Shown here one piece after another: positions 18,247 through 61,816 of a DNA stretch of 64,000 bases. A program made the translations under genes and the position numbers. Source of the stretch: Octopus vulgaris (Eukaryota). How positions within the stretch are numbered: position 1 is the stretch's first letter; every line of letters begins with the position of its first letter. The notes beneath the pieces are model-generated. The model did no database searches, was not told where the DNA came from, and saw nothing but the letters and a program-made list of their open reading frames with translations. The stretch lies in contig OX597828.1 in the NCBI GenBank assembly GCA_951406725.2, forward strand, positions 40,300,001-40,364,000. Reading direction: 5' to 3'.

Positions 18247-18313
18247 CTAAGATGCCATCAACAAGCAGCAGCAGAGGCAACAAGAGCAGCAATATGGAAA
18301 TAGTGGGGAAACT
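18247..18313 (-). CDS. Candidate alternative terminal exon of MICAL: (R)VSPLFPYCCSCCLCCCLLMAS*
   Basis: Branch-point-like CTTAAC (18389-18384), 99-nt AG-free pyrimidine-rich zone, acceptor cttgcag|, phase 2 matching the donor at 18465 (152-nt intron); AATAAA at 18171-18166. Confidence 0.55.
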
Positions 18314-18465
18314 CTGCAAGAAGGAGTAAAAGACAAGTATGGAAGAGCGGAGGGGAAGGAATGACAGAAAGACAAAGATAAGTGTTAAGTGAGTATATGT
18401 GTACGTATATATCGCTGTATTTTTGTGAATGGTTATTATAATGCCAGCATAGGAAGAGAGAATAC

Positions 18466-18580
18466 CTGAGTCGGTCCTCCTCAAGCATTGACACTAAGGC
18501 ATCACGTTCTTCGACAACTTCAAGCAGTTCAGCAAGAATTCGTTTCTCAGCTTCAACCTGATCTGAGGTTTTACTCTTCT
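18466..18580 (-). CDS. Mical: MICAL-family bMERB exon (115 nt, phase 1 to 2): EKSKTSDQVEAEKRILAELLEVVEERDALVSMLEEDRL(R)
   Basis: Acceptor tgattttcag|, donor cag|gtattc; matches the bMERB EKxILxExLEVVExRDxLVxxLEExRLR motif. Confidence 0.93.
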
Positions 18581-18708
18581 CTGAAAATCACGAAATAGGC
18601 AACATTCAAGCAAACAAACAAGCATGCTTTCAACAGCAGTGAAAATTCTTATAAAGCAAAATGCACAACAAAACAGTATTTTATATATATATATATATAT
18701 ATATTTTT

Positions 18709-18946
18709 ACCGGAGTAAACACATAAATGTGAAACAAGGTGGAAAAAAAGAGTACTCAAATACCAGCGGTAGAGTAATATGCTTTATTTAAAGCAGCAGA
18801 AAATTCAACAAAACCTGTTAATCTGAGTTTCCCGTTGCCGTTCATCGGACAGTTTTTGCTAGAATCTAGCAAAAACTGTCCGATGAACGGCAACGGGAAA
18901 CTCAGAGTAACAGGTTTTGTTGAATTTTCTGCTGCTTTAAATAAAG
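18709..18946. mobile_element. Penelope-like pseudo-LTR fragment with an inverted duplication (82-bp arms) and a minimal type I hammerhead motif
   Basis: Arms 18782-18863 and 18865-18946 with one mismatch; ctgt-CCGATGA-acg-gcaa-cgg-GAAA-ctc-a-gag-TA-acag followed by AATAAA; flanked by (TA)n on both sides. Confidence 0.65.
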
Positions 18947-19000
18947 TATATATATTTATATATATATATATATACACACACACAGATACATACATACATA

Positions 19001-19115
19001 AATAGGGCAGAAGTTACATAGGAGTTTAAAAGCATAATGAATTTGTTTCTAATTAAGTTTAATACAAAGGTTGAGTTATTCATTTTCTAAACTCCTGTGT
19101 AACATATGGCCTATT
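19001..19115. mobile_element. Small MITE-like imperfect inverted repeat
   Basis: aatagggcagaagttacataggagttta pairs with taaactcctgtgtaacatatggcctatt. Confidence 0.55.
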
Positions 19116-19172
19116 CTGCAGGTAAGTATGTATGTGTGTGTTTGTATTAGTGTATGTGTGTATCTGTGTGTA

Positions 19173-21338
19173 TAGCTGTCCCTTGGTTTACATGGTAGAT
19201 TGGTTCAGCAAATTTCTCTGCAAGTGGAAATCATGTAAATCGAGGGCAGGGAATCTATGCTTTTTTTAATGATATTGTTATAACAAGAAAACGAAACAGC
19301 AAAAACTTATTTATTGAAATGAGGATTAAAAGAAAATGTGATTATCATGTGGCAGTTTTCATACATGGCCTTTTGTATGAAAGGTTTATTATTTTATTGA
19401 CTGTCGTTTTCACTTAATATTAAAACTGTCATATCTTTTGTTGGTTGAAAAATCCTCATTATCAATTCTATTACCTGCTGCTTCTTCTTCCATAGTCAAT
19501 ATAGCCAACCATCTCCAAACATCTGTTATTGTAAATCATGCAATTTTTCTCTCTGTTTATTTCAGATTGGTGTAACGATATGCAGTAATTTATTTTCCTT
19601 AGAAATTTCAAACTGCACCCCAAATAGGAATCATTATATGAATCCTCATAAGGATCCATATAAAGATAATTAAATTGATCCTTATACAGGCTCATATGAT
19701 GGGTTTTTCAGATTCTTTGCCATTTGTTTTCCGTCTTTTACAATTTTTGCAGCAATCAGTGAGTTTGATTTATTAACATCATTCGCTTTTGTCATTTGGA
19801 ATTACATGAGCATGTCAACTAATTTTTCATCGTTAAATTCGTGATATACAAATCATTCAATACTTCCACATCCTACTAAAAGGATGATATTGTGTCCAAC
19901 TTTAGGTTATTCCTCTTCTTTCAGCTTCACTACTATTCAGAACTCCTCCAGGCAAAATGGTTTTGCAATATGCATTCAAGATAATTTTTCTTAATCCCAC
20001 AAATTGCAATTACCTTCCCACAGTGCAGAATATTAAACTTTTTCCCATCCACGTAGCACTGTAAGTTAGTTGTTTTCTATATCATCCAGTATTTTATATG
20101 CAAATTGTTGAACCAATTTACCTTAAATTCCAAATTATGCTCTCATCTAACAGTTGAACCAGGTTAGTCATATCAAGTGGTAAAAACAAAACTTAAACAT
20201 TAAAGAGTTTTACATTAGAGGAATGGGATTATTGATTAGTTATCCATTAGAAACAAACATGTTGAAGTCAATATTCTGGGGTTTTTTTAAAAATAAATTT
20301 CAGCTTCAGGAATTAAGTTCTGATAAAACCATTTTCAAATATTGTAATAGTTATCTATGATTTGCACACCAATGAACTGGCTGAATGTTTAGAATCTTCT
20401 TCAATTACTTTAGCAAACCATGGCAGAAATTCTCCAGCAGAATCCCCATGAGGTACATGTCCTCAGCCATACAAGCAGTTCAGGTATACCTTAACTACAA
20501 TGTAGGATAACATAACTAGCATAAGCAGAGTGGTACACATCAACAGAAATACATCCAAACCTGTATATCAGATGGTAAAACATTTTGAAAATTAAAATTT
20601 CCTTGAATGAACAAGAGGCAACGACTGCAAACAGTGAAACAAACTTTGGTTGATATTTATATGATATTGGTAGGCATGGCTGTGGTTAAGAAGCTCGCTT
20701 TGTAATCACATGATTTTGGGCTCAATCCCAGTGCAAGGCACCTTGGATGTGTTATTCTACCATAGCCCTGGGATAACCAATGCCTTGTGAGTGAATTTGG
20801 CTGATGGAAACTGTGGACGCTCATCATACATTGATATATATGTGTGTCTGTTTATGTTCACATAACTTAGCAGTTTGGCAATATGAAACTGATAGAATAA
20901 GTATCAGATTTCGAAAAAATAAATACTGGGGGTTCAAGGTAGTGCCCCAGTATGGCCACAGTCAAATGACAGGAAAAAGTCAAAAGTAAAAGATACCATT
21001 ATAAAACTTCAAATTATTTACAAAAACAAACATTAGATGAATGTTTTGGCCAAATTGTGTTTGCTTCTCTTGGATTCACTCAAGCAAAATATTTTACCAT
21101 TTGATTTACAAGTTTTGATATTTTTCTGTCGGACTTAAGCAACATGAAGACAAATTCAGAGTTCCTAATGGGAAAGAAAGAAAAAAAAGAACACTTTGCA
21201 AAGCATGGGGATGTACAGGGATCACAACAATAAAGTAATCGTGCATTTCAAATCAATAAACAATAATCAACCAAAGCCAAAAACCATGCTAACGTGAAAC
21301 CATATAAATGGAATACCATGTAAACCAAGGGACAAAGA
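19173..21338 (-). mobile_element. pogo/Tigger-family DNA transposon with a decayed DDE transposase
   Basis: Perfect 21-bp inverted repeat tgtcccttggtttacatggta (19177-19197 / 21314-21334); TA flanks; minus-strand remnants HGDSAGEFLPWFAKVIEE and VLFLPLDMTNLVQLLDESII resembling the FLPPNTTSxxQPxDQG motif. Confidence 0.85.
20672..20992 (+). mobile_element. SINE family A nested in the Tigger element
   Basis: Head aggcatggctgtggttaagaagc; tail cagtcaaatgacagga. Confidence 0.75.
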
Positions 21339-21744
21339 TATGTACGTTTGTATACACACAGAGAGATGGGGTTGGGTGGGGGGAAGGGGTGATAAAAATA
21401 AACAGCAAAACCATTCTCTTATTTTGTTCTTTTAAAAGAGAAATTGGTTTGATACAACAATAGGCAACTGGATTAGTTACTTCAATCTCTCGTGTTCTTC
21501 GGTCCGATTCAACTCACATAGTTGATAGGATTAGCAAGTACCAGTGGTATGTTGGAGTCAACTTTGATTAACCTTACCCCCTTTTTTTTAAAAAATGGAT
21601 CACAACAGTTTTGTCAATCCAAAATAACTGGAATCTTCAGCGAGGTAGGATTCCTACCCAAATAAAATACTTTTATATTGTGTTTAGAGCAATATACAAC
21701 AGTATTTGAGTTAAACATTCTTGGCAGTATCTTTTATATATATA

Positions 21745-21993
21745 TCATCATTGTTTAGCATCCGCTTTCCATGCTGGCATAGGTTGGACGGTTCAACTGG
21801 GGTCTGGGAAGCCAGAAGGCTGCACCAGGCCCAGTCTGATCTGGCAATGTTTCTACGGCTGGATGCCCTTCCTAATGCCAACCACTCCGTGAGTGTAGTG
21901 GGTGCTTTTACGTGCCAGACGAGGCTAGCAAACGGCCATGATCGGATGGTGCTTTTTATGTGTCACCGGCACGGGGGCCAGGCAAGGCTGGCA
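21745..21993 (-). mobile_element. Family C element
   Basis: Reverse complement of the 3' part of 10480-10918. Confidence 0.85.
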
Positions 21994-22003
21994 ATATATA
22001 TAT

Positions 22004-22051
<48 letters not shown>

Positions 22052-23024
22052 TGATACAGTTGAATAACGAGGTGCTATTGTTATATTGTCCCAGATCGTT
22101 ATTGACTGAGCAAACCTATGATCTAAGTAATTCCAGCCATGACCATCCCATTATTTTTTTGAGGAGTATAATTAGAACTACTCTATTTAATGTCTTTTTT
22201 TTTTTTAAGGTGGTAGGGTGAGATCTGAGGGGGATTTGGCTGTTATTTCTAGCAGGCTGAGTGACCATATCAGTAACAGATGACAGAGAGAGATGGTGGG
22301 TGATTGGAACGTAACTAGTTAGAAAGAAACAATGGAGAAAGGAGCAATAAAAGAAATAGTGAGAGTGGGAGGTGATGTGTATAGATGTAACATGTAACAA
22401 AGTTTATTTCACTGAATCATGGACAGCAACATTTCAGAGTATTTCCCTTTATAAGCAAAGGAAAGAAAATACCAAGACATACACGTTTCCAGAATTTGAG
22501 AACCAAGAAACTCGGTCTTGTTTCCTGAAGAACTTCTATGCTGTGACTTTCTCTTGATCTAGTTTCCGTATCAATTCTGGAACTCCAGCACAATAGAATT
22601 ATCTTTACATGTATTTTTAGTTTATAATTTTATATTTTTTTTAATTGGAATTTAATCAAATGCACTTTTCAGCTTGAATGCGTTTAAAATTTATATGCGT
22701 TATTTCTTTACGATCAATATAATCTAATGTCATTTAATTGATTATGACATTTTTTTTTAATTAGGTAAATAATGAAGCTATACATCATCATTTAACTCTG
22801 TTTTCTATGCTGGCATGGGTTGGAAGATATTTAACATTTTAATGAACATACTTTTACAACCACCTTCCCCACTAGCTGAATGTTCTTAAAATAAGACACA
22901 CCTAGAGAACTTCTCTTCCCATAATTCATTGCCATAACAACAAGAACAGCTTTGTAATCAACATATCTATGGGATGGAAAGGTCGGCCATTCTGTTGTAC
23001 AACAAACATTCCTTTTACCACTGG

Positions 23025-23750
23025 AGCCATGTATGGTTAGGGTATTCAGCTCAAGACCATATCATAAGTTCATGAGATCTGATACCTGGCAGCTTGCTGT
23101 GTCCTTGAGCATGACACTTTATTTCATGTTGCTCCAGTCCACTCAGCTGGCAAAAATGAGTTGTACCTGTAACTGAAAGGGTCAGCCTGAGAACTACATC
23201 AGGAGCACACATGTCTGTGGAATCCTCAGCCACTTGGATGTTGATCAGATCAACTGGAACCCCTCATCATCTTAACTGATGACACGTCAGTTGGGATGTC
23301 TTTGCTGTCGTTTACCACAGAGACAGATTAGACTAGTTGTATTTATCTGGATCTCTGTACTACAGAAGTTGTCTTTGTAGGGACAGAACAGTTTCTGTCT
23401 CATCTTGATATAGTTAAAAAAGTAAAATCTAAGGAGAAGATAATAACAATTGTTTATAATGAAGGCATGTGGCCTAGTGGTTAGGGGTGTTGGACTCACA
23501 ATTGTGAAGTCATGGTTTCAATTCTCAAACTGGGTGCATGTTGTGCTCTTGAGCAAAATGCTTCATTTCACATTGCTCCAGTTCACTCAGCTGTCAATGG
23601 GTAAACATGCAATGGAATAGCTTTCCAATCAGGAGGAATGTTGGCCTGCTGACCTAGCCAGCAGGATGGCATCATTTGAAAGCTAAAACAATGAAGTACA
23701 TTGTGACTAGTGATGTATAACATTCCTTAGTCTGCTCGATACCATGACAA
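23025..23750 (+). mobile_element. Two tRNA-derived SINEs of family D (~23025-23290 and ~23461-23750)
   Basis: tRNA-like heads (tggcctagtggttag) followed by gtgtccttgagca...tgctccagtccactcagctg; the two copies have different tails. Confidence 0.75.
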
Positions 23751-24219
23751 GGATAGACATTTTGAGGGGAGGCATGGACAGACTCATCAATGCCAATATT
23801 AAATCGACCCTGGAGGGATGAAAGGACACATTGACCATGGCAGTATTTAAATATAAAGCAAAGAACCAAAAGGGATACCATAACCACTGTTCCTTCTCAT
23901 TTCTTTTCGCACTGAGAGGATACAGAAATTTGCATTAAGTGCAAATTTTATCTTTTTTTTTTTTGTTGTTTTTGCAGAATATGTATGCAACAGAGAGAGT
24001 AACATTCTCTCAAATTTCTTTGATTAATAAAAATCAACCCAAAACCTTGTATGTGCATGTTTTTTTTTTCCCCCATCCCCAGTTATAGAACAAGAGTGGA
24101 TACACAAGTGCACAGTTGAGAGGGAACACTGACCAATCACAAAGCCTTTTTCCAATGCTCTAATGATTCTGCCCACCCAGCAGCCTTGCCAATCCACTGC
24201 CCTGCAAAGATAATAACAA

Positions 24220-24735
24220 TAACCCTTTCCATTACAGGCCTGAAATTTTTTGGTAAGGGGGGGGGGGGTCTAAGTCGATTACATTAACCCCAGTGCTCGA
24301 CTGGTACATATTTCGTTGACCCCAAAATGATGGAAGGCAAGGTCAACTTTGGCAGCATTTGAACTCAACACCTAATGACATGAAATGCCACAAAGCATTT
24401 TCTCTGATATGCTAACAATTCTTCCAGCTTGCTACCTTATAATAATAATAATGGTCTTTGCTTTAGGCAGAAGGTCAGTGATTCTTAGGGGAGGGAGGGT
24501 TTAGTCAATACCATCAACCCCAGCATTTTGACTGAAACCTTATTTTATTGACACCGAAAGAATGAAAGACAAAATTTACCTTAGCAAGATTTGAACTCAG
24601 AAATGTAAAGAGCTGTAATGAATATAGCAAAACATTTTCAATATCTATTGCAGCTCTTTATGTTCTGAATCAAATACTGCCAAGGTCAACTTTGCTTTTC
24701 ATCTCCCTGGGGTTAATATAATAAGGCTCCAGTTT
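24220..24735. mobile_element. Cluster of family B SINEs including a head-to-head fold-back
   Basis: Two minus-strand copies then a plus-strand copy; 24530-24619 is an imperfect inverted repeat of 24646-24735. Confidence 0.7.
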
Positions 24736-26009
24736 TGTGTCTAGATCAAAAATGATGATGATGGCGATAATTCTTGTTGGAATATTATCTAAGTATGACC
24801 TAATTAAAGCCAGCTAATTAAAATAGTTGTAGCATGCAGAAGACAACTAGAATTTAATATGAAACATGTAGAAAAAAACTTATATTGGAATTTCTTTTTT
24901 AAACATTGCATGCAGAAGTTTAACAGAGAAAATAAAGGAAAAAATTTATTTTTAAATAACATTAAAAAATATCACAAAATTGTTTCAAACAATTCATTAA
25001 ACATATGTTCAAACAATAATAAAATTGTTAGGGATGCAGGAAGGCACAGGACCGTCCAAAAGTTCAAATACAACCACCTAATCTGGCCTACACTATTTTG
25101 TTCCAATGCACACACACACATAAAAAAAAAAGTAAGCAACAAAATATATATATAGGATAGATGCCCAAACAAGGCAGGGGGAAATATGCCAACCAAATGC
25201 AAAATGAAGCACAGAGGGTAGGAGGAAAAAACGTGGTGGTGGTGGTGGGAGAAATGAGCACAAAGCATGCAGGTCTCAAATTTCGAGACAAACAAAACAA
25301 GGGAGTGCTTGAATGAAGGAGGATAAGAGTTTCCAGGAAGAAAAACAAAGGGTTGCAACAGAACTATTAGCAATGAACCAGTTTACCCATTAGCCACAAC
25401 AGAAAGGATAATTTATGTTATATTAAGAGAACCCAGGTAAGATAGGGAAAAGAAAAACAAGATAAAAAAAAAAAGAAAACCTAGTATAACCTCTAGCATG
25501 AACCAGTGTTTGGATCCTCACGTTCATGGTTTGAAACAGAGGATTCCTAGACAACTATATTCTTGAATGATTCTGCACATATCTCTAATAAATAGGTTAA
25601 CTGAGGCAATGTAAAATAAAACATCTTGCCTCCAAGATACAATGAAATGTTTGAAGGTGATTTGAACTTATGACCTTTGAGCAACTGGTACAATTCTTTA
25701 TCCATTTGGTAATTCTATCTTTATAGGAAAGAAATTTAGTTTTCTTTGAATGTCTCAGAAAAGTAGTTACATCTGGCTAGGTCAATTATAAATTTGTTGA
25801 ACTAAGCCCATGGCTAGTGTGTGTGGTCAAAAGCCCCAACATTCAACAGTAGTAGCACAGGGCAGTCAAATATTTTACTTAACTCATGGTACTAAGTTCA
25901 AGCCCTCATAAGGAGCATTGTCTTATGACAGAGGGGCACAGTCAGTAGCAGCCATCTTTAAATTAATTTTATCATCACCATGTTGATGTGAACCCAGTAT
26001 GAATTAATC

Positions 26010-26040
<31 letters not shown>

Positions 26041-26904
26041 ACAGATTGCTCTTACTAAAGAGCATATAAGTTCTAAAGCAGACAGAGCTGCAGGTTCAAT
26101 CTTAGGCTACAGTGAAATCTTACTTTGACAATCTGTGAGATTGTCTTTTAATGTATGCGTGGCTGTTGAAACTGTCAGCTATGAAACTTAGGTAGAACAT
26201 TCTAATGGTCAGTCATAGGTTTTTTCATTCAGTTTAAATATGTTCTTTCCAAGGTAGTGTATTCCATGTTAAATGTGCATTCACATACCATTAATGGTAC
26301 TTCAGGAATATTTTCCTTCATATGCAACCTGTATTGAAGCAACACTGAGTGTGTGGTTATAAAATGCACTGAAGGAAAATACAAAATCTATCAAGTCAGT
26401 AACTCAGATACATTCCCAACAGTAACATGAAATATATTTTCGTGTAAAGTTTCTTTAAATTTATATCAAATTCTACTCTTGTTGTCGTCTTTAAATTGAA
26501 TTTCATACTGGAAAAGTTAACTGGCAAATTTAGTTGATTGTGGTAATGGAGAATTCTTTCAAGGGAAATAACTTGTCTTCTTCCACAACAGATTCAAAGT
26601 TTGTGCTAGATTTATACGTATTTAAACTAGGCCTTTTGAATTGAAACAGTTCATCATTTTAAACTAATTCTAAAACAAAGGAAAAGAAAAAGTACTAATA
26701 AAAGACATAATTTGATTCAGTCTACCTTGTTCATTGCTTACCATGTTAATAAGTTATATGGCAAACAACTATAGCACTACGAGATAAATTGAAAACAAGA
26801 ACTGTATATATAGAGAGCAGGCTGCATCAGACAGAACTAGCCAACTGGCACAATGTTAAGAGTATTGAAACATGAAGGCAATAACAGCGGAACTTATGTC
26901 ATAC

Positions 26905-26962
26905 CCCTCTTCTGTATTCTGAGACACATTTGGGACATTTCTGTGACCACAAGTAGGGGAAA
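26905..26962 (-). CDS. Candidate alternative exon (58 nt, phase 1 to 2): (V)SPTCGHRNVPNVSQNTEE(G)
   Basis: Very strong acceptor (ttctaat...tttttgttcttttag|) after a ~90-nt U-rich tract; donor gg|gtatga; open in the MICAL frame. Confidence 0.45.
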
Positions 26963-28635: not shown

Positions 28636-28712
28636 CATCATCTGTTGTCATTTTGTTCCTTAACTCAGTTTCAAGACGTGCCTGCCGATCTTCTAACTCT
28701 AATTCTTTAGCT
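28636..28712 (-). CDS. Mical: MICAL-family bMERB exon (77 nt, phase 2 to 1): AKELELEDRQARLETELRNKMTTDD
   Basis: Acceptor ttcttttctgcag|, donor atg|gtaagt; resembles MICAL3 ARELELEDRQSRLQQELRERM (recalled); in frame with both neighbours. Confidence 0.93.
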
Positions 28713-29679: not shown

Positions 29680-29950
29680 GACCCAATCAAAGGAACAGCC
29701 TGCTTGTAAAACTAGCATGCAAGTGGCTGAACACTCCACAAACATGCATTCCCTTATTGCGGTTCTCAGGGAGATTCAACATGACAAGGCTGGCTCTTTT
29801 TGAAATACAGGTACAACTCATTCTTGCCAGATGAGTAGACTGAAGCAGCATGAAATAAGTGTCTTGCTCAAGGACACAAAGCACGACTAGGAACTGAACT
29901 CACAATGTTATGATTGTTAGCTGGATAGCCCCTAATCGCTAAGCCATGTT
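29680..29950 (-). mobile_element. SINE family D
   Basis: Reverse complement of 55096-55418. Confidence 0.75.
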
Positions 29951-30019
29951 CCTTTACTAATCAAATAGTAAAAGATAGCACTGAAAGCTGCAAGTATATG
30001 CACAGAACAAAAATATGGT

Positions 30020-30646: not shown

Positions 30647-30743
30647 TGCACCATAAGTTCAGATTCATAACGAAGTAAAACGTTCTTCTCGTGTACAAGA
30701 TTGAACCATTCTTGCATGAGTTCACCCTCGTTTCGACCAGCTT
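30647..30743 (-). CDS. Mical: MICAL-family bMERB domain exon (97 nt, phase 1 to 2): (E)AGRNEGELMQEWFNLVHEKNVLLRYESELMV(Q)
   Basis: Acceptor ttcctacag| after a long pyrimidine tract; donor ca|gtaagt. Translation matches the LMQEWFxLVxEKNxxxRYESELM motif recalled for MICAL3/Mical bMERB. Phase matches the next exon. Confidence 0.93.
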
Positions 30744-35570: not shown

Positions 35571-36668
35571 ATAACAACAGCTACAACAACAACAAATGGT
35601 TATAGGCAAGTTCAGTCTTCATGTGTTAATAAGTGTTTCATATCTATATTACAACAAAGAGAAGAAATACAACATAACATCGATATTTACAGAACAACAA
35701 CGTCAATATGGAACAACTAAAACAGGGGTATCTGATAAAACAAACAACAATGATGGCAACAACAGAAATGCTAACAACACAAAACAAGCGAGCAAAACAG
35801 AAATAAGGACCTCAACTGGTCGATAATCCCATCAGGACAACAACAACAAAAAAAAAAGGGGGAAGAGAGGAGGAAACCTGTTTATGTATATGAATGATTA
35901 GAATGGTATTGAGTGAAACTGATTGAGGAATTTCACTGTAACAATTCACTGGAACCAACAACAACAACAACAAGAGTTCAAAGGGTCCAGAACTGCCCAG
36001 TTATATGTACCACAACCACAATATGAGAAGAAACAAACAGAAAGATTGAGACTATTAACAAAACATATGAAGGAAGTGGGTATTGATGAGTAATTTGTGT
36101 GATTATTAATTATTTCTTTATTTACATATTTTTTTTGAAATTAAATGATTATGCAAAAAAAAAAAAAGAAAAAAGAAATTAGTAGAAAGCAGATGTTTGG
36201 AACTAGGTACAAATTGTGCAAAAGGGCTGAGGTAACCCTGTATTATTTGCAAAATTCATTTAATGTCTACAGCACAATGCTAAAGTTGTAAAAGCCAAAA
36301 TATTGAAGTCTTTTTCATAAAGATCATTAAGTTTGTTTAATGTATTACAACACACACACACAATCACTTCTCAATTTGCTGATGTATAGAGTGGATACAA
36401 AGACTAACTGAACACACACATATATATACATACACACACACACATATATACACACACACACATCTATATATACACATACATACATTAATAAAAACAGACA
36501 TATATATAAATATATTTGCAAATAGTAAGGGATTACTCCAAACATTTACTCGTTTGCTCTCAGGTGTATATATATATATATAAAAAGAATGAAAGGCAAT
36601 GCTACACCAGTTAGTAATAATCCTTATTATAATTGCTGTTGACATATATAAATATATAGAATATTTAC

Positions 36669-36689
36669 CTTACATAATCTTACACATTT
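36669..36689 (-). CDS. Candidate 21-nt microexon: (E)MCKIM* (CaaX then stop)
   Basis: ttcaaTGCactcttatattag|aaatgtgtaagattatgtaag|gtaaat; read in phase 1 as this intron requires. Confidence 0.4.
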
Positions 36690-37172: not shown

Positions 37173-37244
<72 letters not shown>

Positions 37245-37404
37245 GACAGGCTTCTTTTAATTTCCATCTACCAAATCCACTCTCAAGGCTTTGATCAGCC
37301 TGAGGTTATAGTAGAATACACCCACCCAAGGTGCTACGCAGTGGGACTGAACCCAGAAACATGTGGTTGGGAAGCAAGCTTCTTACCAACAGCCATGCCT
37401 GCGT
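37005..37404 (-). mobile_element. SINE family A with expanded internal (CA)n(TA)n
   Basis: Head and tail motifs in reverse orientation. Confidence 0.85.
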
Positions 37405-37405
37405 C

Positions 37406-37465
<60 letters not shown>

Positions 37466-37469
37466 TACA

Positions 37470-37838
37470 TCTCTCTCTATATAAACGGAAGTTTGTCTGT
37501 GCGTGTTTCTGTGTGTCTGTTTGCTTGTACCCTCACCCTGACCACGCCTTTCAACCGATTCTGATGAAACTTGACACACACACATAGCCCAATGTCATAA
37601 CTCAAAACTAACGCAGCGAAAATTTTGAAAAGTTCCCCAGTTCTGAAAAAAATCGATAAATTCGACATGGGGTCGAGAATTAGAAACACAAACCGCAAAC
37701 TGTCTAGGGGACGCAACTCCACCTTTTTTAACTAAAAAAAAAATTTACCATCATTTTTTCCCATCTTTTTGCTATTTTTTGGCTATAACTCTCTAAAAAT
37801 GCTTTATAGTTATTTCCCTTACAAACCTGAGCAACGCT
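37470..37838 (+). mobile_element. Non-autonomous Helitron (3' end clipped)
   Basis: A|TCTCTCTCTATATAAA start; end aaacctgagcaacg shared with 16749-17150. Confidence 0.7.
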
Positions 37839-38655: not shown

Positions 38656-40798
38656 TATATTAAATATGCGAATGCTAATCATAAATAATAAACCAAATTG
38701 AATCTAAATAGGCTTATCTGCCTCTCTCTCTTCTTCCATCCCTTCCAAACATGCACACACACACACACACACACACGCATGTACACGTGCATCATTTATC
38801 GCACAATAAATTATTCTGGCTGTTCCAGAACAAAATCTGATAAACTTTTAAAGAAGAAATGTTTTCATGATTCATGAATCAGTTAATTACTCGATGTGCA
38901 GAAACTGCTACTGTCATTGGACAAGATGACGTGGAACAGCATGAAACATGACCAAATAAGGTCAAAGCTTAAGCTGACTAAGATGTGAGGAAATGTCAGA
39001 GTGTCACAGTACTCTCTCTCTCTCCTTTGTGTGTGTATACACACACCTTTACTTGATTCAAGTCATTGCACTGCAGCTATGCTGGAGCACCTTCTAATAG
39101 GGTCAGTCAAACAAATTGATCGCAATACTTATTCTACGGGTCTCTTTACGGATAGTTTACTACCAGGTTACAGGGACGTAAACAAACTAACACCAGCTCT
39201 GAAGTAGTGGTGATGATGGTTGTGGGACAAACATTAACACAAAAACATAGAGACAAAACATATACACACATACATACATACCTACATACATACCTACATA
39301 CATACACACAAACACACATTTATACATGCCAAGCTTCCACACAGTTTCCATATACCACATTCACTCAGAAAGCATTGGTCAGCCTGAGACTGTTGTAGAC
39401 AACATGCCCAAGGTGCTATGCAGTGGGACTGAACCTGAAACCATGTGGTTCTTAACCACACAGCCATGCCTATGTTTAATATGAAATTTCTGTTCCTTCT
39501 AAAATGGAAACAATCAAACAATGAGAATAATTTCTTCTTAGACAGGGATAGAAAGCTTAAGATTTCTTTTAAGATGTGACATTCTTGCTTTCCCCCAAAA
39601 ATGTAAGAAATACCAACAATCATAATAGGAACAAACAATGACAACATCAACACAAATTTAAATAAATAGCCAATTTTTCAATAATACAACGTCAAATGTT
39701 GGTGGTTAAATATGATGTCCATGTTTAAGAATGCAAACAAAACCAAGGCAGGCAACTGCGTAAAGGATAAGGCAAGAATGTAGTTGTTGCTGAGACAAAG
39801 GGTGTCTTTCACAATGGTCAAAGAACGGAGACTAATGACAATGGAGATACGACAATGAAATGAAAAACAACAAAAACAACAACAACAGGGAATAAGTTCA
39901 TGAAGAAAAGGAAAATGACAAAAGAAAATGGTTAAGAAATAAATAAACTGGCAGTGACAATGATGAAACAAGGATTGAAATACTTTGCGACACAGAGTAA
40001 ATGTATGTATGTATATATATACATATATAAATATATATATATATACATACACACACACACACACACACATATATATGTATATATCCATATACTAATATGA
40101 ATATACACACACATGCATATATATATATATGCATGTGTGTACATATATATATATATATATACATATATATGGTGTTGAAGAGGTCAAAATCTGTGTCTGG
40201 CAGACAATAAAAAATATCTTACTTTGTTGTCCTTTGAGAAGGGTTGAAATCTGGTTGATTCCTCTTCCTGAAATATAAGGTAGACCACCCAATATTGCAG
40301 ACATAGGGTCTCAAATATGCATTTGAAATAATATCAAATATTAAGTGAGAACACTTTTAGCATGGTTTCTTTGAAATCCACTTTCTTAACATCTGCCCCC
40401 CCCTCCCATCACTATTACAAGAACAACCATTGCTTCTAAACAACAACAACAACAACAGCAATAACTTAATATGTTAAAGGAAATATCAAACAATAATAAT
40501 AATAAAACAAAGATGTTTCCATGAGAACAAGTTAGAAAAACAATTTCAAATTTATCGTCTTTGTAACAGTTTTTTGTTTGTTTTTACCATAAGACACATA
40601 CACACACACACACACACACTCACATTTAGAATCTTTAAACAAGGGAATTTGAGAATTTTTTTTTTAAATCAGACATTTAAAAATGTCTGTTTTAATAATA
40701 TTTAGGAAGCAAAATAAAATTTTATATATTTTCTTCAAATGAATTTAATTCTGAACTCATATAATGAAATTTAGTGTCAGACAAGATTCTTCTGCCAG

Positions 40799-42988: not shown

Positions 42989-43693
42989 CCACCATGTGAT
43001 CAACCAGACTATTGTATGTTGTTACACATCACTGGTCACAATGCACTTTGCATTGTTTCAGCTTTCAAATGATGCCACCCTGCTGGCTAGGTGAGTAGGC
43101 CAACAATCCCCCTGATCAGAAGGCTATTCCACTGCAGGGTTGCCCAGTTACAGCTGAATGGACTGGAGCAATGCAAAATGAAGAGTTTTGCTCAAGAACA
43201 CAATGCATCACTCAGTTTGGGAATTGAACTGACAATGTAGCAATTATGAGTACAACAACCTAACCACTAGGCCATGCATTTTTCATATATGTCAATTCAA
43301 TTCAATTCAATTTTTATTGGCTCAAAAAGCAAAAGCAAGGCCATGTAGGGGGACAGGGAGTTATGTACAGGGAAGGTGGTCATACAAAGAGTTCAGGCCA
43401 TTTCTGGTCAAGAGAGACTTTGAACCATGTATGTATACATAGTTATGTAACCAACATAAAATGATAGGTTAATTCACACTACACTTCCAACTTTTCATCT
43501 CACCATCTTTCAAACCAGCCACTAAGTAATTCATACCTCACACTATCTCTCTTACACTCATCTCTCTTACACTCGTCTCTCTTTTGGCCTTCGTCCCTCA
43601 CAACTAACACACTTTACTCTCTACATTTTCATTCACTCCCTCAATATACTGTTTTATTATAATGGAGCTATGCAGGATATATCAGGATATATA

Positions 43694-44068
43694 GGCGCAG
43701 GAGTGGCTGTGTGGTAAGTAGCTTGTCTACCAACCATATGGTTCCAGGTTCAGTCCCACTGCATGGCACCTTGGGCAAGTGTCTTCTACTATAGCCTCGG
43801 GCCGACCAAAGCCTTGTGAGTGGATTTGGTAGACGGAAACTGAAAGAAGCCCATCGTATATATGTATGTATATATATATATATATGCGTGTGTGTGTTTG
43901 TGTGTCTCTGTTTGTCCCCGTTACTTAGCGGTTCGGCAAAAGAGACCGATAGAATAAGTACTGGGCTTACAAAAGAATAAGTCCCGGAGTCGAGTTGCTC
44001 GATTAAAGGCGGTGCTCCAGCATGGCCACAGTCAAATGACTGAAACAAGTAAAAGAGTAAAGAGAGAG
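43694..44068 (+). mobile_element. SINE family A, near full length
   Basis: Intact tRNA-like head and tail. Confidence 0.9.
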
Positions 44069-44649
44069 TCATCCTTTTACATCTGTTTTCCATGCTAGCA
44101 TGGGTTGGACAATTCGACTGGATCTGATGAGCCACAGGGCTGCCTCATGCTCCAGGTCAGCTTTGGCATCGTTTCAATGGCTGGATGCACTTCCTAAACT
44201 GCAACCACATTACAGCATGAATTGGAGACCCTTTTGTGTCACTGGCATTAGTGGAGTTGCCTCCACCACATACACATACACTCACACACACAGTGGAAAT
44301 TCTTTATTAAGTTAAATTTATTGAAAGACTTATATTTCTATAGATTTATGTTATCAGTAAATATACTTGAAGATGAACTACGTTGTTCAAAGAACACGTG
44401 TGACCAGTTTAGACACTCAGGAGTAGATATTACTATATTTATAATTAATATTTTAATGAATTCCTCAGTACATAACATTTATTATTGATTTTAGAATTTT
44501 TCAGTGAGATAGACTTTAATATTTTTATGGTTTAGTGAAAAGAAAGGGTAGCACCCATATTTTGTATGAACTCTGAAACTGGTGAGAGGAAAATAGAAAG
44601 TGAAAAACCTGATCCAAATCTAACAGCTTAGACTCTGTTACAAACACTT

Positions 44650-45238
44650 AAGGGATAAGTGGAGGTACTCAGGGGATAGATAGATGGAGGTACTCAAACG
44701 GTAGGTGGAGGTACTCAAGAGATTGATGGAGGCACTCAAAGGGTAAGCAGAGACACTCAAAGGATAAGTGGAGGTACTCAAGGGATAGATGCAGGTACTC
44801 AAACAGTAGGTGGAAGTACTCAAGGGATTGATGGAGGCACTCAAAGGCTAAGCGGAGGCACTAAAAGGATAAGTGGAGGTGCTCAAGAGATCGACGGAAG
44901 CCCTCAAACGGTAAGTAGAGGTGCTCAAAGGATTGATGGAGGCCCTCAAAGGGTAAGTGGAGGTGCTCAAGGGATCGATGGAGGTGCTCAAGGGATCGAT
45001 GGAGGCCCTCAAAGGGTAAGTGGAGGTGCTCAAGGGATCGATGGAGGCCCTCAAAGGGTAAGTGGAGGTGCTCAAGGGATCGATGGAGGCCCTCAAAGGG
45101 TAAGTGGAGGTGCTCAAGGGATTGATGGAGGCCCTCAAAGGGTAAGTGGAGGTGCTCAAGGGATTGATAGAGGCCCTCAAAGGGTAAGTGGAGGTGCTCA
45201 AAGGATTGATGGAGGCCCTCAAAGGGTAAGTGGAGGTA
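44650..45238. repeat. Minisatellite with a 42-bp higher-order unit of two 21-bp monomers
   Basis: aaagggtaagtggaggtgctc + aagggatcgatggaggccctc; homogeneous at 44940-45238, degenerate to the left. Confidence 0.95.
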
Positions 45239-49739: not shown

Positions 49740-49927
49740 CAGTAATCCCTCACCATATCGCATTTTATTATTTAAGCTTACATCGATTCCTCTGTGGTGC
49801 TGCTTTGCATTTATAATATGATATATACATTAAAGAAAAAATATACAGTACTCTTTCTACTTCATGGATTTTCACCTATCACAGAGGGTTTTGAAATGTA
49901 ACACCCGCGATAGTTGAGGGATTGCTA
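49740..49927. mobile_element. Tigger-like MITE
   Basis: TA flanks; terminal repeats cagtaatccctca / tgagggattgcta. Confidence 0.75.
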
Positions 49928-52655: not shown

Positions 52656-52829
52656 CCCTTTTGATACCAATCCACCTGAAAATGTCTTTGGTTCTATGAT
52701 ACAAATCTGTTTTAAAATGATCTACATTAAAACCTTCCGCCGAAATTCCATGCTAATTTATGATCCAAACAACTTGCTTAATAAAATCAATACATAATGC
52801 ATTTCAACAGAAATATGGTAACAAAAGGG
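52656..52829. mobile_element. piggyBac-like MITE
   Basis: TTAA|cccttttgatacc...ggtaacaaaaggg|TTAA; homologous to 6446-6661. Confidence 0.85.
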
Positions 52830-54803: not shown

Positions 54804-55013
54804 ATTTCTTTACTACCCACAAGGGGCTAAACACAGAGAGAATAAACAAGGACAGACAAAGGAATTAAGTCGATTACATCGACCCCAGTGCGTAACTGGT
54901 ACTTAATTTATCGACCCCGAAAGGATGAAAGGCAAGGTCGACCTCGGCAGAATTTGAACTCGGAACGTAACGACAGACGAAATACGGTTACGCATTTCAC
55001 CTGGTGTGCTAAC
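54804..55013 (-). mobile_element. SINE family B
   Basis: Reverse complement of 4339-4578. Confidence 0.85.
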
Positions 55014-55095
55014 AACCAATTTATTTTGTTCCTGAGGAGGTCTGATAAAGCTCAAACATATTTGAAGTTATCAACACACTTAACCAAAGATCATG

Positions 55096-55418
55096 AAGGC
55101 ATGTGGCTTAGTGTTTAGGGTACTTGTTTCACAATAATAAGGTCGTGAGTTTTGATACCTGGTGGCACACTGTGTCCTTAAGCAAGACACTTCATTTCAC
55201 ATTGCTTCAGTTCACTCAGCGAGCAAATATGAGTAGTTCCTGTATTTCAAAGGGCCGGCCTTGTCACATTCTGTGTCCCACTGAATCTCCCTGATAACTA
55301 CATTAAGAGAACATGTGTCTGTAGAGTGCTCAGCTACTTGCGCATTAATTTTCCAAGCAAGATGTTCCATTGATTGGTTCAACTGGAACCTTATTGTCAT
55401 AACTGACAGAGTACCAGT
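55096..55418 (+). mobile_element. SINE family D, near full length
   Basis: tRNA-like head gaaggcatgtggcttagtg; central gtgtccttaagcaagacacttc. Confidence 0.8.
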
Positions 55419-58314
55419 TTTGCCCTTTTTTAAACCAAAAATCAAATGCATACTCCACTGCATGTCCCTTCCATTCAATCCTTTTTTATCTAATGATTTC
55501 TACTCTCATTACAAGACTAATTTTAGTTGATTATGAATTCAAGGGAGATTCCTACATCAAACATGGTCAGCCTGAGTTTAACTACATGTTGTAAACTGCG
55601 TTTCCTCTCTCTCCTCCCTTTCACTCCTACTTCTCTTGCTCAACTCTCCTCCTGAAATATTCCCCTGCCGTACATAAGCTCATTCTCTCCATCAAATCAA
55701 CATTTCCTGTACAAATTCATGGTGTGTGACATGTTACATGTTGAAGAGATCACATAACAACATGAAATGAAGTGTTTTGCTCAAGAACACAATGCACTGC
55801 CCAATAACGGAATTGAAACCACAATCTAGCAATGTGTATGTGTGTGTGTGTGTGTGCTGAGCATTTTACTTCCAGTGCAGGAATCACCAATTTACAACGA
55901 ACACATATGTATTCATAATTCCCTATTTCTATATTTGAAAATTATCATTGTTTTGAAAATGAAGGGGGATAAAGATTTCCATGAAAAATTATCTACATTT
56001 AATTTAATTGCAGCAATAAAATATTCTAACATATTTTCTAATTTGTTTTGTGAATAAAGTTCTACAAATGTTATTTTCTATTTTTTTTTACTTAATTTAA
56101 TTCACTGCAGTATCATTACACATTTATCATCTAAAACTGATGTGATTCATGAAAGAAAAAACATAAAACTATATATATATAGCTGATGTTTTTTTGTGTA
56201 TGTGTGTGTGTGTGTGTGTGTGTGAGTGAGTGAGAGTGAGAGAGAGTGTAATCTAACAATCAAATCCCATGATGCACGATATTTTTTTTGCCTGAACATC
56301 CAATTTTCATAAGTTCCATTACACTCATATATTTGATGTTGGCAATGTTTAGTACACTGTATCATTGTTGAGTAAGGTTCTTTTTTTTTTTCTTTTTTAA
56401 CCAGTTATAGCAGATTTTGACTATCATAGTGCACAGAGGATGGCACATTGGTGTGGCTTCTCATTGCCTTTTCCATGATGAAGAAAAGACAAGCAGGCTC
56501 TTGTGATATTCTTGTTGTTCATAAGGGATCATATTATATATATTTATAACTATAATTATTTAAAGCCCAAAACTAGCTAAATATATTAGCAGTTTAAAAT
56601 TTAAACAGAAGTCTGGCAGGAACAATATTCTCTTTCCATAATTTCTTTAAAAAAGAAAAAATTGATTTCATATTTTTATATTAAATGTGTTTCACAAGGA
56701 AAACTAAGGAAATGAATTTCATTTTGATAATTATTTTTTTGACTTTTTATCTTTTAATTTCAAAATTCAATATTTTACAGCCATTTTGGTTCTGCATGTT
56801 CTCAAAAAAATGTTTCTGGGTCGGATTTATGATTAGCTGCATTTGAATTTTCTTTGATGTAGCTAAATATGAGGGAGATGGTGGATTGAGAAGTAGTGAA
56901 GCTAGGGGTTGGGGGTGAGGGATTGGTCCACCCCAGGCAATGCTTTTATGGTGGGGAGTGGCATTTTGGGTCTGCTGTATAAGTCTGTATAGGCTGTTTG
57001 CAGAGAGAGGAATGCCTTCCAAACACAAGGGCTACTCCTGGTGGCACATACCCTAGAAATGCCACTGGAATTAGTTTGGTACTATTCTTACTATTAGGCA
57101 TCCAATTAGCAGATCTGCTAGAACATTGGCTCAATATCTTGCAGTATTGATCTCTTTACATTCTGAGTTCAACTTTGCTTTCCATCCTTTCAGGGTTGAT
57201 AAATAAAGTACCACTCAAGTACCAAGGTTGATTCTCTATCTCTCTCCCTCAGTATTGGCTCTAAAGTGCTAAGTGCTGCAAGCAAGTCATTAATAATGAC
57301 CACTCCCAGTATTCCCAGTGTCCTGTCCCTTCCCTCAAGAATTGGAGAAGGGTTGTTCAACTAGAAGCTAGCAATTTCTCAACAAGTTCACTTAAAAAGG
57401 CACTGAAAGGAAAATGGCAGGTGCAGACAGACCATTGTGTTCTAAAGCACAGAATGCTTAATAAAAAGAAAAAGAAAAAAACCTTTTACTTTCTACATAA
57501 TTGCACAAAATGCTAGATCTAGAAGCCAAATCCATTCCACCCACCAAACAAAACCATTCCTTCTTAAAAAGGAAGGATGCATCTTCTGCGCAAACCAAGT
57601 TTGGCTCTTGACAGCAGGCCTGTCAGATTTTAATTTTGCCCAACATAAGAATTATTTGGCAAAGACCTAGTTTCTTAGGGGCTCCACATGTTCACCTTTG
57701 TTATTGTTATGTCCATTTTTTTGCATGCTTGTATGGATTGGATGATACATTTTAAGGCAGTATTATTCTTAGAGCTGGATGCCCTCCCTCACATCAAGTC
57801 TTTGTTTTCATGTAACACATTTGCTGAACCATTGAGCTGCTGGAAATACTGTTTATATGGGACATAAACAAATATAACCACTGACTGAGCAATCTCAATG
57901 GAAAGACACACACAAATAACAAGATTCCATACAGTTTCCTTAAAAAAAAAGACTGTTCAGTAGAAAACAACTGTCCAAGACTGTCCATGCAGTGGGATTG
58001 AACCAGTAACCAAAATGAATTTCTTAACCATACATCTATGTCTGTACCTTTCCCTGTTTGAATATTTACCAATTAAGGAACTTTTGCTTTAGTTTGATGC
58101 CACTTCTGCCATGGAACCACCAAACTCTCATATAACAGCCATATCAATAAGGTTAGTATTATTTCCATTTCACTTCTCAGAGATCTTGACTTTACTTGCT
58201 CCACTTAATTCTGTAAGAACAGACAACAACTTGTTGTCAAACACCTCACAGGGCCTCTTACCACAATACTTAACACCCAAGAACCAAGCTCAAAACCCTC
58301 TTATATCATCATCA

Positions 58315-58347
<33 letters not shown>

Positions 58348-59116
58348 GTAGTAGTAGTAGTAGTAGTAGTTATAAGCAAAGCAACAACACTACTTATTCT
58401 TCTTTCCTCTCCCTCAGATGAATGATAAGGGCTTGAAACCTCAGATTCTTCAATTACTATGGCAACTGAACTTATCAAACTCTATGGACCCTTCTCTAGA
58501 CCATTTGTTTCGGACACAGACACACTGCAAAATTCCTTTGGAATTCTGGATTCTACCGAATATTGTAATGCTCTTCTCTTACATCATACTTTCAAAAACA
58601 AATTATTAAACCATATTTCAAAGCAAATGAAAAGACAAGCAAAAATTAAATTAATAATTCAAAATGAAATAAGCATTAATGTATTTCATGAGGAGAGACA
58701 GAGCGTGCACACACACACACACGTGCGCACACATACACACGCACATTGTGAAGGTATTGTTTTAGTGATTTTTATTTCATTTATTATGATCATTTACTCT
58801 TTTACTTGTTTCAGTCATTTGACTGTGGCCATGCTGGAGCACCGCCTTTATCCAAGTTTCTTTATTAATATTTACATTTACTCAATATTTCAACCAGTTG
58901 CATCCCCAGGTCATCAGGTATCTTATTCCTGGATATTAACAATGTCTTTGCAGATGAAAAATTATATAAAAAATTTACATCTACACAACACTTTGATTAA
59001 TTTGATGTTCAATAGTCATCAGGTGTATTATTCTGAGGTACCTATGTAGCAGCAGATTAGATCAAAGGGAAATAATACTCTTACCTGCTAAACCCATTGA
59101 TTAAATATAACATATA

Positions 59117-59519
59117 CTAGCAGTATCGCCCGGCATTGCTCGGGTTTGTTTTGACCCTTTAGAATTGGAATTTTTGAAAAGTAAAAATTTTGCATTATGT
59201 AGCTTGTTATTCTCTTTAAGTGAACATTTTTCTGGTTGAAATACACTAGAAAATGGTGACACAGCAGTCAAAAAATTGTAAAAGAATAGGGATTTTCATA
59301 GAAAAAAGCACCTTTTTGATGTAAATAATTTTTGGTGTTTACATGGTCTAATTTGAATTTTTTTCTTATACGGAAGGAAGAGCAAGCCTTTTTCTATCTT
59401 ACTCTCAATTTTGGGCAACTTGCACCGCAGGGTCTCGGAGGAGATAGTGTTAGTTGAAGGCTACCAAACCTGCCACACACACACACACAGACAACTTCAG
59501 TTTTATATATATAGAGAGA
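59117..59519 (-). mobile_element. Non-autonomous Helitron, complete
   Basis: On the minus strand: A|TC start, cccgagcaatgccggg hairpin, CTAG|T end. Confidence 0.85.
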
Positions 59520-59749
59520 TTTAAATAGTTCAACACGTAATGAAAATATTGCTATTGTTGTTTATTCACACACACATACACACACACATGCGCACGTATT
59601 TTAATGTAGATCTAATGCTGAGCTTTATAACATTTATCAAAACACTTGTTTTCTTTTTCATGGCTGAATATACTTTGGCCCTGGTCAGTAACTGACCAGG
59701 GCTAAATTATATTCTGGGAGAAAAGGAAACCACGTGTTGACCCTATCAT

Positions 59750-59945
59750 CATTATCATCATCATCATCATCATTTAACATCTGTTTTCCATACTGGTATG
59801 GGTTGGATGGTTTCACAGGAGCTGGTAAAGCCAGGGACTGCATCAAGCTCCAACTGTCTGTTGTGGCATGGTTTCTATGGCTCATTGACCTTCCTAATGC
59901 CAACCACTTTGCAGAGTGTGTTGGGTGTTTTTAACATGGCACAAG
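59750..59945 (-). mobile_element. Family C element, diverged
   Basis: (CAT)n tail and ccttcctaatgccaaccact motif. Confidence 0.75.
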
Positions 59946-60289
59946 AATGTTCCTTTGATATTTATTATGGTTTGACTTTGTGATGTTTAATATGGAGTGT
60001 GAGTGGTTTTGTCCACATTGATAGAAATGATTTTAAGATCTCCGTACATGGAAAACAGTGTGTGTGAAGTGGGGTATGATGTGTGGTGTCTTGGTTGGGT
60101 GTGGATGACAGCTGTGTGTGGGAAATTAAAGAAGAAATGAAAGGTGTATTATCAGCACAAGATTTTTTTGTTGTTGTTAGAGGGACAGGAAATAGGTAAT
60201 CAGTGTATTAAAAGAAGAGTATAAGAGACAGTTGATAGAGTTTGGAGGTCAGAAAAAGTGTCTTCAGCATAATCTTTATTTCATCACTT

Positions 60290-60621
60290 AATCAGGAAGG
60301 AGAGCATTGCTCAAGACTTTTTGAAAGGGGTAAGGTATTTTCAAGCCAGTGTTCCAAATGCTTACAACAAAGTAGACCCCACTAAAAGCCTCCAAGAACC
60401 AGGTAAATGGTGTTAATTTGGGAGACAAATTGAGTCTACTGCCCAGTTTAGTTTGAAGGAAACTTTCATTCAAGTACATCAGAGACAGATGGAGCATAGG
60501 GCAGACAACTTAGCTTGACATTTCTATCAACAGAAAACTTTTCTTATGTCAAGCACAAAAATATTGCTTTCATCAAAGTTCTCAAGAGTGAGAGACCCCC
60601 TAGACATGTTAGTGTGTGTGC

Positions 60622-60656
<35 letters not shown>

Positions 60657-60900
60657 GTTCAAGGATGTGATTGTTTAAGAATGTTTCTATAACCTTTGAG
60701 ATGTTGAATGTGAGAGTGATTGGTAGATGTCTACCTGGGACACACTGTAGCAAGTTTCCTCATCGTAGAGAGGGAAGGGTTGAAGAATTTGGTGAGAACA
60801 GAAACTATCTTGCAGGTATTATATCTAATGATAGTGTGAGCAATTCTCTCAGGGCCAATTGTCTTGTAGGGTTGAAGTTGAAGAGGCAAATATGTTTATA
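60290..60900 (-). mobile_element. Decayed CR1/L2/Jockey-type reverse transcriptase remnant
   Basis: HLPITLTFNISKVIETFLNNHILELL resembles the NYRPISLTSxxSKxxExxI RT motif; interrupted by a microsatellite. Confidence 0.5.
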
Positions 60901-61765
60901 ATACCATGTAGAAATCTACAGTTTTTGTTTCTAAATAAAGCTGGATCTCATGAACCATCTTTAATTTATCCAACATATTTTGTATATTTATGTATATTAG
61001 TTAATATATATATACATATGTTAGAGAATAACCCCTGAACTTTAACTACATTTATTACCTAACTTAGATAATGACCAACCGAAGTGAAGAATGTATGTGC
61101 TTCTCAACAACAACAACAATAGGAGCCATGAAGGGAACTTCTAAAGGGTTACTCACACTGCTAGAAATAGCAGCCAAATCTTTCTTAAATTACCTTCACC
61201 CCTATCTTGAAATCAGAGGGTCGCATTGAATAATGTAATCCTGGATACATAATACCACAAAAAGGACAGGGTGGTCATGGTTGGACTGCCTTTGATCAGA
61301 GGTCTGCTCAATCAAGATTGATCTGAGGTTAAATAGCAACAATAATTCAACCTAAGTTGAGTCAAGAAGTCAGTTTTCTTCTCAACAGAGATACACACAC
61401 ACACACACACACACTTTCTGCCAAGAACTTTTAGTCATTATTCTCTTATTGTTCATGTCGTTATACATTTAATAAATATTCCTGATTAATTTTTTTCCTA
61501 TAATGTTGATAGTTCTTGGCTCAATAAAGATTAGTTAAAATATTTTTTATATATTTACCATATTGTTGTTAGCATTCCTGAAGAGTATTCTAGAAAAAGT
61601 CCTTATTGATGTTACCGAGATGAATGGCTTGACTAGGATAGAGAGATAATGGGGGAAGGCAGTGCAGAAGAAGTTGAGTAAGTAAGCAAAATGACAGCAC
61701 AACCTTCGCAACCATTACAGGGCAGAATTATGAAGTGAAAAGTAAAAGAGAAAGCAACACTTCAC

Positions 61766-61816
61766 CTTGCAGTGGAGTAAAGGCACATGCCAGACATATA
61801 TTGATGATTCCATACT
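61766..61816 (-). CDS. Candidate 51-nt frame-preserving cassette exon: (E)YGIINICLACAFTPLQ
   Basis: Acceptor ttttctatgctgtgtattttccag|, donor aag|gtgaag; symmetric phase 1-1; no stop. Confidence 0.4.

Follow-up and report, generated by a model that had tools for sequence, protein, structure and literature searches.

MICAL proteins are thought to reach membranes, and to be switched on, via Rab GTPases and plexins that act at the C-terminal domain. Isoforms spliced without helix 3 of this domain (bMERB) would be Rab-deaf, and forms with a lipid or transmembrane anchor of their own would localise without Rabs; either change would alter the aim of actin disassembly in cells. The gene considered here is a MICAL gene of Octopus vulgaris, the 3' end of which lies on the minus strand of contig OX597828.1, positions 40,300,001 to 40,364,000 (G000:C15:40300001-40364000; this whole stretch of 64,000 nucleotides (nt) is termed the window). 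Four optional exons at two joints of its bMERB domain likely tune Rab control, rather than switching lipid anchors.

According to the accessible text of PMC11315924, helix 1 of bMERB contacts the oxidase domain, and helices 1 and 2 pack on the CH and LIM domains; helix 3 is disordered until a first Rab binds and opens the enzyme, making it a Rab-triggered switch. Deletion of helix 3 impairs the high-affinity site 2 (PMC5026484, accessible text). The same portion of that paper provides, in EHBP1 and EHBP1L1, a precedent for a lipid anchor directly after a bMERB domain: the CaaX boxes of EHBP1 are constitutive and shown to be prenylated, whereas the supported octopus MICAL exons carry no standard CaaX. 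MICALs have many splice forms (PMC9982024, in the part available). In mammals, a Mical3 exon of 51 nt and 17 residues, beside the coiled coil, is regulated by RBPMS, RBFOX2, MBNL and QK and is proposed to modulate autoinhibition (PMC12721327, in part); developmentally regulated, PTBP2-regulated Mical3 exons occur in cortex (PMC3896118, in part). The accessible portions of these two papers mention neither cysteines nor lipidation in a Mical3 exon, and those of the reviews PMC9982024 and PMC3221843 mention neither palmitoylation nor prenylation. In the literature as far as its text was accessible, no report was found of octopus MICAL isoforms, of a palmitoylated MICAL cassette or of a membrane-anchored MICAL; splicing or palmitoyl-proteome tables may hold the MICAL3 cysteine exon.

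Profile searches place PF12130 (bMERB) on minus-strand exons in the window and just outside it. Further upstream on the same strand, matches to PF25413 (MICAL monooxygenase family) put an N-terminal flavoprotein monooxygenase in the same gene. The bMERB domain of the window matches 5szg, the MICAL3 bMERB chain, with E=1.8e-37; a large upstream exon, used as query, recovered MICAL3-like Octopus proteins at 98-100% identity; and a 2609-residue O. vulgaris MICAL protein maps letter for letter through the window in 30 exons. Acceptors were scored with a matrix built from the 28 acceptors of this gene and applied to 3168 AGs in four introns; in leave-one-out scoring the true acceptors reach 0.7-14.3, and 27 of the 28 score at least 4.0. 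The Octopus sample consists of 19 isoforms (4 of 4 from one protein cluster and 15 of 32 from the main cluster). Five exons make up the bMERB region, separated by introns of phases 1, 2, 1 and 2, in that order:

73895-73718, minus strand: first bMERB exon, beyond the window
30647..30743, minus strand: constitutive bMERB exon for the first half of helix 2; enters in phase 1, leaves in phase 2
28636..28712, minus strand: constitutive bMERB exon for the second half of helix 2; enters in phase 2, leaves in phase 1
18466..18580, minus strand: bMERB helix-3 exon (phase 1 in, phase 2 out), with a weak donor (3.9)
14125..14242, minus strand: canonical last coding exon (acceptor 9.8), in frame in 11 of 19 Octopus isoforms and in 10 of 10 cuttlefish-type C-termini

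An earlier note on this DNA had picked seven intronic peptides as alternative C-terminal ends. Its premise, that the bMERB region is alternatively spliced, is borne out: public models contain four optional exons, and the isoform sequences coincide letter for letter with AG/GT-bounded segments of the window, in support of the tuning proposal.

61766..61816, minus strand: exon A, a 51-nt in-frame cassette encoding INICLACAF (CxxC), placed in the loop that joins bMERB helices 1 and 2; picked by the earlier note
40223..40267, minus strand: exon B, a 45-nt in-frame cassette, placed in the helix 1-2 loop; absent from the earlier note
26905..26962, minus strand: exon C, a 58-nt cassette with the same phases as the helix-3 exon; absent from the earlier note
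22417..22576, minus strand: exon D, which follows exon C and is then read in phase 2; picked by the earlier note

Exon B is present in 14 of the 19 Octopus isoforms, and a matching cassette (10 of 16 positions identical) occurs in 4 of 10 cuttlefish-type C-termini, Logan records among them. Exon A (acceptor 9.5, donor 5.0, single copy) is included in 10 of the 19, from O. sinensis and O. bimaculoides, and never without exon B; it is an internal cassette and forms no C-terminal end. On chain 5szg, the 15 or 32 residues that exons A and B add map to the interval from residue 44 to 49, a point that is read, from sequence, as the bMERB helix 1-2 loop. The first bMERB intron also holds three unannotated stop-free phase-1 segments on the minus strand (50991, 46820 and 35264; 36-42 nt) whose acceptors and donors have fair scores, possibly further microexons or chance.

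Exon C is found in 8 of the 19 isoforms: in one it swaps in frame for the helix-3 exon, and otherwise it leads into exon D (7 of 19 isoforms: long form in 2, short form in 5). The short exon D (94 nt, donor 22483) frameshifts the helix-3 exon, which then runs into a stop 28 nt short of the last junction. The long exon D ends as KCCCP-stop in O. sinensis X2 only (1 of 19 isoforms), with AATAAA at 22408, 9 nt later. The O. bimaculoides long-D model continues 30 residues beyond KCCCP, so that neither the stop nor the C-terminal motif is shared between the species. The prenyl ends of the earlier note find no support: the sole supported cysteine at position -4 is that of CCCP (1 of 160 proteins), non-aliphatic and ending in proline, and the other proposed end, MCKIM, is without exon support. 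A separate model, O. sinensis X7 (P0021; 1 of 19), joins 28636 to 14242, skipping the helix-3 exon, and has the frameshifted end KTEI, of class I PDZ type.

By analogy with human MICAL1 structures, exons A and B would modify the helix 1-2 clamp or the second Rab site (site 1), and the CxxC of exon A may provide a palmitoyl or redox site. Exons C and D replace or frameshift helix 3 in the gene models. Forms lacking helix 3 would retain the oxidase clamp formed by helices 1-2 and would lose the high-affinity Rab site. Because helices 1-2 are kept and helix 3 is lost, we infer that these forms stay shut and Rab-insensitive, and are not freed. This is the reverse of the relief of autoinhibition envisaged in the earlier note, since the annotated truncating forms keep helices 1-2, the inhibitory contact of MICAL1, and lose the Rab-triggered helix 3 (PMC11315924, PMC5026484).

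Vertebrate MICAL3 resembles the octopus gene in having optional in-frame inserts at the same bMERB junction, one cassette of 17 residues and another with a cysteine cluster. Among 96 matching vertebrate sequences, a redundant set, 63 have no cassette at the exon A/B junction, 19 have the 17-residue type, 12 have a basic-plus-cysteine insert with CxxC, and 2 have some other insert. To judge from its length and stated position, the 51-nt exon of PMC12721327 would be the 17-residue cassette seen here. Unlike this likeness of position, neither exon A nor exon B shows a significant sequence match to the vertebrate cassettes, and the order differs, the cysteine cassette leading in Octopus and trailing in vertebrates; an eight-residue similarity of exon A to vertebrate cassettes is not significant (p=0.066 for the python cassette, and 0.22). 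CxxC occurs in 1 of 18 pseudo-cassettes, that one being exon A itself. The octopus and vertebrate loop cassettes are likely of independent origin.

The second joint also has counterparts. Bivalve models have optional cassettes in the loop of helices 2 and 3, at the joint that octopus exons C and D occupy, which supports the tuning proposal. Such inserts were noted in P0061, P0321, P0322, P0162, P0165 and P0153 (bivalve or other mollusc type), and Mytilus has none, one or two. At the C-terminus, tails of scallop or mussel type (P0005-P0007, P0039, P0041, P0042, P0061) share an FPLSC end with a conserved terminal cysteine.

Several points weigh against a tuning function. The exon evidence consists of public predicted gene models from O. 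sinensis, O. bimaculoides and O. vulgaris; such models usually rest on RNA-seq. The functional steps are transferred from human MICAL1/3. Exons A, C and D are missing from all 10 cuttlefish-type sequences and all 4 O. vulgaris models, and may therefore be young or leaky exons. Between O. sinensis and O. bimaculoides, exon D has changed more rapidly than the large low-complexity exon has (6/52 versus 50/1189, p=0.02). Finally, hydrophobic tails at the junction after helix 3 in other phyla suggest that membrane anchoring may matter more.

The doubt about leaky exons can be put as an alternative, possible if rather unlikely: exons C, D and possibly A would be leaky lineage-specific exonisations, or expression-dampening exons without protein function, and only exon B would be selected. 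Such an origin would fit the wrong-frame peptide end produced by exon C with short D, the fast divergence and unshared stop of exon D, and the absence of A, C and D from cuttlefish-type sequences. Moreover, the first intron holds nine stop-free phase-1 cassette-like segments with passable splice sites, two of them annotated. Sequence conservation argues the other way: between O. sinensis and O. bimaculoides, exon C is identical and exon A nearly so (differences at 0 of 20 and 1 of 18 positions, respectively; exon B, 0 of 16), and exon C with short D recurs in 5 of 7 O. bimaculoides sequences. Nor does the shifted stop sit well with dampened expression. By the usual decay rule a stop must lie 50 nt before the last junction, so that this one, at only 28 nt, would escape.

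Another alternative retains one real anchor switch from the earlier proposal. The intron after the helix-3 exon would give an alternative end (18313 or a read-through), the octopus version of the hydrophobic tails in arthropods and a deuterostome, and together with exon A this would allow Rab-independent membrane attachment. This reading is considered doubtful. Three candidate endings lie in this intron, all unconfirmed:

18247..18313, minus strand: candidate alternative last exon, a 21-residue hydrophobic tail with 7 cysteines, YCCSCCLCCCLLMAS; picked by the earlier note
18258..18465, minus strand: the helix-3 exon read on into the open intron: 68 mildly hydrophobic residues, with hydropathy peaking at 1.73 over 19 residues
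18179..18313, minus strand: the 18313 acceptor used in phase 0, giving a 44-residue end that includes a leucine-rich stretch (hydropathy 2.66)

Alternative last exons change the prenyl or palmitoyl anchor in KRAS4A/4B and CDC42, where both forms are expressed, conserved and biochemically shown. The 18313 candidate would work in the same manner; the canonical last exon is in the gene models, the long exon D in 2 of 19, and 18313 in 0 of 19. Public gene models already include exons A-D; the anchor isoform is a candidate. In proteins of the cysteine-string and SNAP-25 type, clusters of cysteines are palmitoylated. The 18313 peptide resembles these in its dense cysteine run with hydrophobic flanks, a resemblance only, and differs in that the run sits within a low-complexity CTG/TTG tract. 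Cysteines beside hydrophobic or basic residues give exon A, exon D and 18313 a sequence context that fits putative S-palmitoylation. An 18313 form would retain most of bMERB, adding a membrane anchor to Rab binding.

The earlier note was right to flag 18313. Its acceptor scores 12.9, the top value among 218 in that intron, and outscores the canonical one; the phase is right; it starts 152 nt past the weak helix-3 donor; it is single copy; and AATAAA follows at 18171, 76 nt past the stop. Two frames are open across those 152 nt, unlike the 27 other introns (openness of the first 150 nt occurs in 1 of the 28 introns of the gene). No second copy of exon A, exon D or 18313 was found in a search for a repeat origin, one that skips simple repeats. 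Other observations count against it. AATAAA has a density of 1.5 per kb here, and it is a degenerate CTG/TTG run, hydrophobic in all three frames, that supplies the cysteines. An acceptor of at least 9 together with 5 cysteines in 12 residues was seen in 2 of 332 control trials, so that about 0.24 would be expected by chance among the 40 tested. By a hydropathy window alone, the phase-2 tail reaches 1.87, being short and cysteine-driven. The phase-0 reading is reachable only via exon C and short D with the helix-3 exon skipped; alternative donors that would bring the leucine-rich frame into use score -3.6 or -0.6 and were set aside.

No 18313-type tail occurs in the 19 Octopus isoforms, the 10 cuttlefish-type sequences, or the bivalve and abalone isoforms among the matches listed. 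The candidate tails are in none of the best 120 of 175 matches from cephalopod transcript fragments, and a protein search with a 41-residue query, subject to length limits, gave no match. That the 18313 ending is used as a fifth splice choice is a tentative suggestion.

The comparative argument for an anchor comes from a survey of 150 representatives (the best of 1904 matches), 27 of which depart from the family profile right after helix 3, 15 of them with at least 19 further residues. A segment with hydropathy of at least 2.0 is present in 7 of these 15 and in 1 of 10 tails that leave earlier (p=0.088, after 12 and 11 short tails, respectively, were dropped). Timema, Diabrotica X7, Notodromas and Amphibalanus are among the sources; Athalia X1 and Cyprideis lie outside that count. 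At the same junction after helix 3, a transmembrane-like tail takes the place of the canonical last exon in models of Athalia rosae (X1), Diabrotica virgifera (X7), Timema, Notodromas, Cyprideis, Amphibalanus and P0208 (a RefSeq X2 model, which we take to be from a sea urchin), with the difference that in Cyprideis the hydrophobic segment precedes the canonical last exon instead of replacing it. Athalia rosae and the P0208 cluster each have both the canonical and the hydrophobic-tail isoform; this counts for the anchor switch, as does the basic-plus-cysteine cassette that 12 of the 96 vertebrate sequences have at the exon A junction.

Homology with the octopus tail finds no support. The arthropod and P0208 segments are rich in Leu, Val, Ile and Phe after a spacer (hydropathy 2.2-2.7, by window measure only), and the octopus tail is not alignable to them: its phase-2 reading resembles none of nine hydrophobic tails (p 0.15-0.96). 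The phase-0 frame gives shuffle p-values of 0.003 and 0.019 against two insect tails (36 comparisons), which are not taken as homology, because a hydrophobic block of any kind is disrupted by shuffling. A number of the arthropod tails come from ab initio models, so that intron read-through may have produced them as artefacts. Among the matches listed, abalone, bivalve and starfish isoforms lack a hydrophobic tail (starfish, 8 of 8 canonical). A metagenome scan with the helix-3 exon found three loci, two of which stop within about 60 nt of the exon. At a bivalve-like locus (L020:721-822) the intron after the helix-3 exon contains a frame with a clear hydrophobic segment, but in phase 0 behind an exon that finishes in phase 2; as DNA, this intron matches the octopus one only at a level that 54 of 300 shuffles attain. 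ESM Atlas returned bMERB clusters only, below 0.9.

Taken more broadly, the same observations would describe an overlooked splice-controlled membrane anchor of animal MICALs: a hydrophobic tail after helix 3 (in arthropods, a deuterostome and, as a palmitoylated string, 18313) plus a cysteine-bearing cassette in the loop of helices 1-2 (vertebrate MICAL3, exon A), repeatedly evolved at the same joints and permitting Rab-free parking on membranes. This is speculative and rather unlikely. For the MICAL3 cysteine cassette at the exon A loop and the hydrophobic tails at the 18313 junction, both as apparent from sequence, no earlier description was found in the accessible literature. Given the vertebrate MICAL3 parallel at the exon A loop, mammalian cells offer a direct test of the cysteine-cassette idea.

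The full switchboard of the earlier note, in which many phase-compatible exons yield palmitoyl, prenyl, PDZ and transmembrane ends, is highly improbable: although seven peptides exist in usable phases and two are annotated, the phase null is flat, four acceptors fall below 27 of the 28 true acceptors of the gene, three picks would cut bMERB after helix 1, and the markers of 25092, 35992 and 36689, like that of 18313, occur in 0 of 323 collected proteins.

In detail, all seven peptides were found on the minus strand, each coordinate being the first base after an AG. Four (61816, 39831, 36689 and 35992) need phase 1 and lie inside a phase-1 intron, and 18313 needs phase 2 inside a phase-2 intron. 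Both 22576 and 25092 need phase 2, available only downstream of the 58-nt cassette 26962-26905; an initial view of these two as wrong-phase picks was dropped, as exon C supplies that phase. As exons, 61816 (10 of 19) and 22576 (7 of 19) are annotated, and the other five (18313, 25092, 35992, 36689 and 39831) are each in 0 of 19 Octopus isoforms. Besides 18313 (fifth of the 3168 intronic AGs), 61816 ranks 31st and 22576 (score 5.3) ranks 188th.

Pseudo-exons were then counted for five motifs: cysteine cluster, cysteine at -4, CaaX, PDZ, and hydrophobic segment. In the permitted, +1 and +2 phases, respectively, motif-bearing pseudo-exons number 321, 334 and 329 of 2523 at the loosest of four acceptor cut-offs; 103, 97 and 107 of 753 at a score of at least 1; 29, 29 and 27 of 213 at 5 or more; and 7, 6 and 5 of 40 at 9 or more. 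Equal frequency in the wrong phases is the outcome that the earlier note had itself named as speaking against "many" targeting ends. Upstream introns have an equal or higher motif rate, and the antisense strand a somewhat lower one. This null treats the third intron as phase 1 throughout, yet its lower part becomes available in other phases through exons C and D, and the phase argument loses further weight. As a set, the seven picks show no excess over chance, and four of them look like chance products of intron sequence:

24972..25092, minus strand: hydrophobic tail; acceptor -6.5, rank 2423 of 3168
35946..35992, minus strand: NSCCCCCWFQ, from a TGT/TTG microsatellite; acceptor -3.4, rank 1749 of 3168
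36670..36689, minus strand: MCKIM; acceptor 1.7, rank 631 of 3168; CaaX-like ends number 2, 4 and 3 of 753 across the three phases
39818..39831, minus strand: VSVL; acceptor 1.1, rank 734 of 3168; PDZ-like ends number 23, 21 and 25 of 753 across the three phases; absent from C-termini among the matches listed

The window has other features. Frames at 2724-3248 (minus strand) and 7004-7824 (plus strand) have no Pfam match; by eye they resemble, we presume, C-terminal remnants of LINE reverse transcriptases. Similar translated stretches at 1905-2327, 9410-9796, 37173-37484 and 43668-44144 point to one short interspersed repeat. A 42-nt minisatellite at 44644-45238, in the first bMERB intron, has open frames on both strands, and its 196-residue plus-strand reading matches PF21300 below the cut-off. 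Elsewhere in the genome, other bMERB genes lie at G000:C30:6832307-6834496 (plus strand) and G000:C7:3036881-3043227 (minus strand), with a weak match at G000:C17:23716623-23716796.

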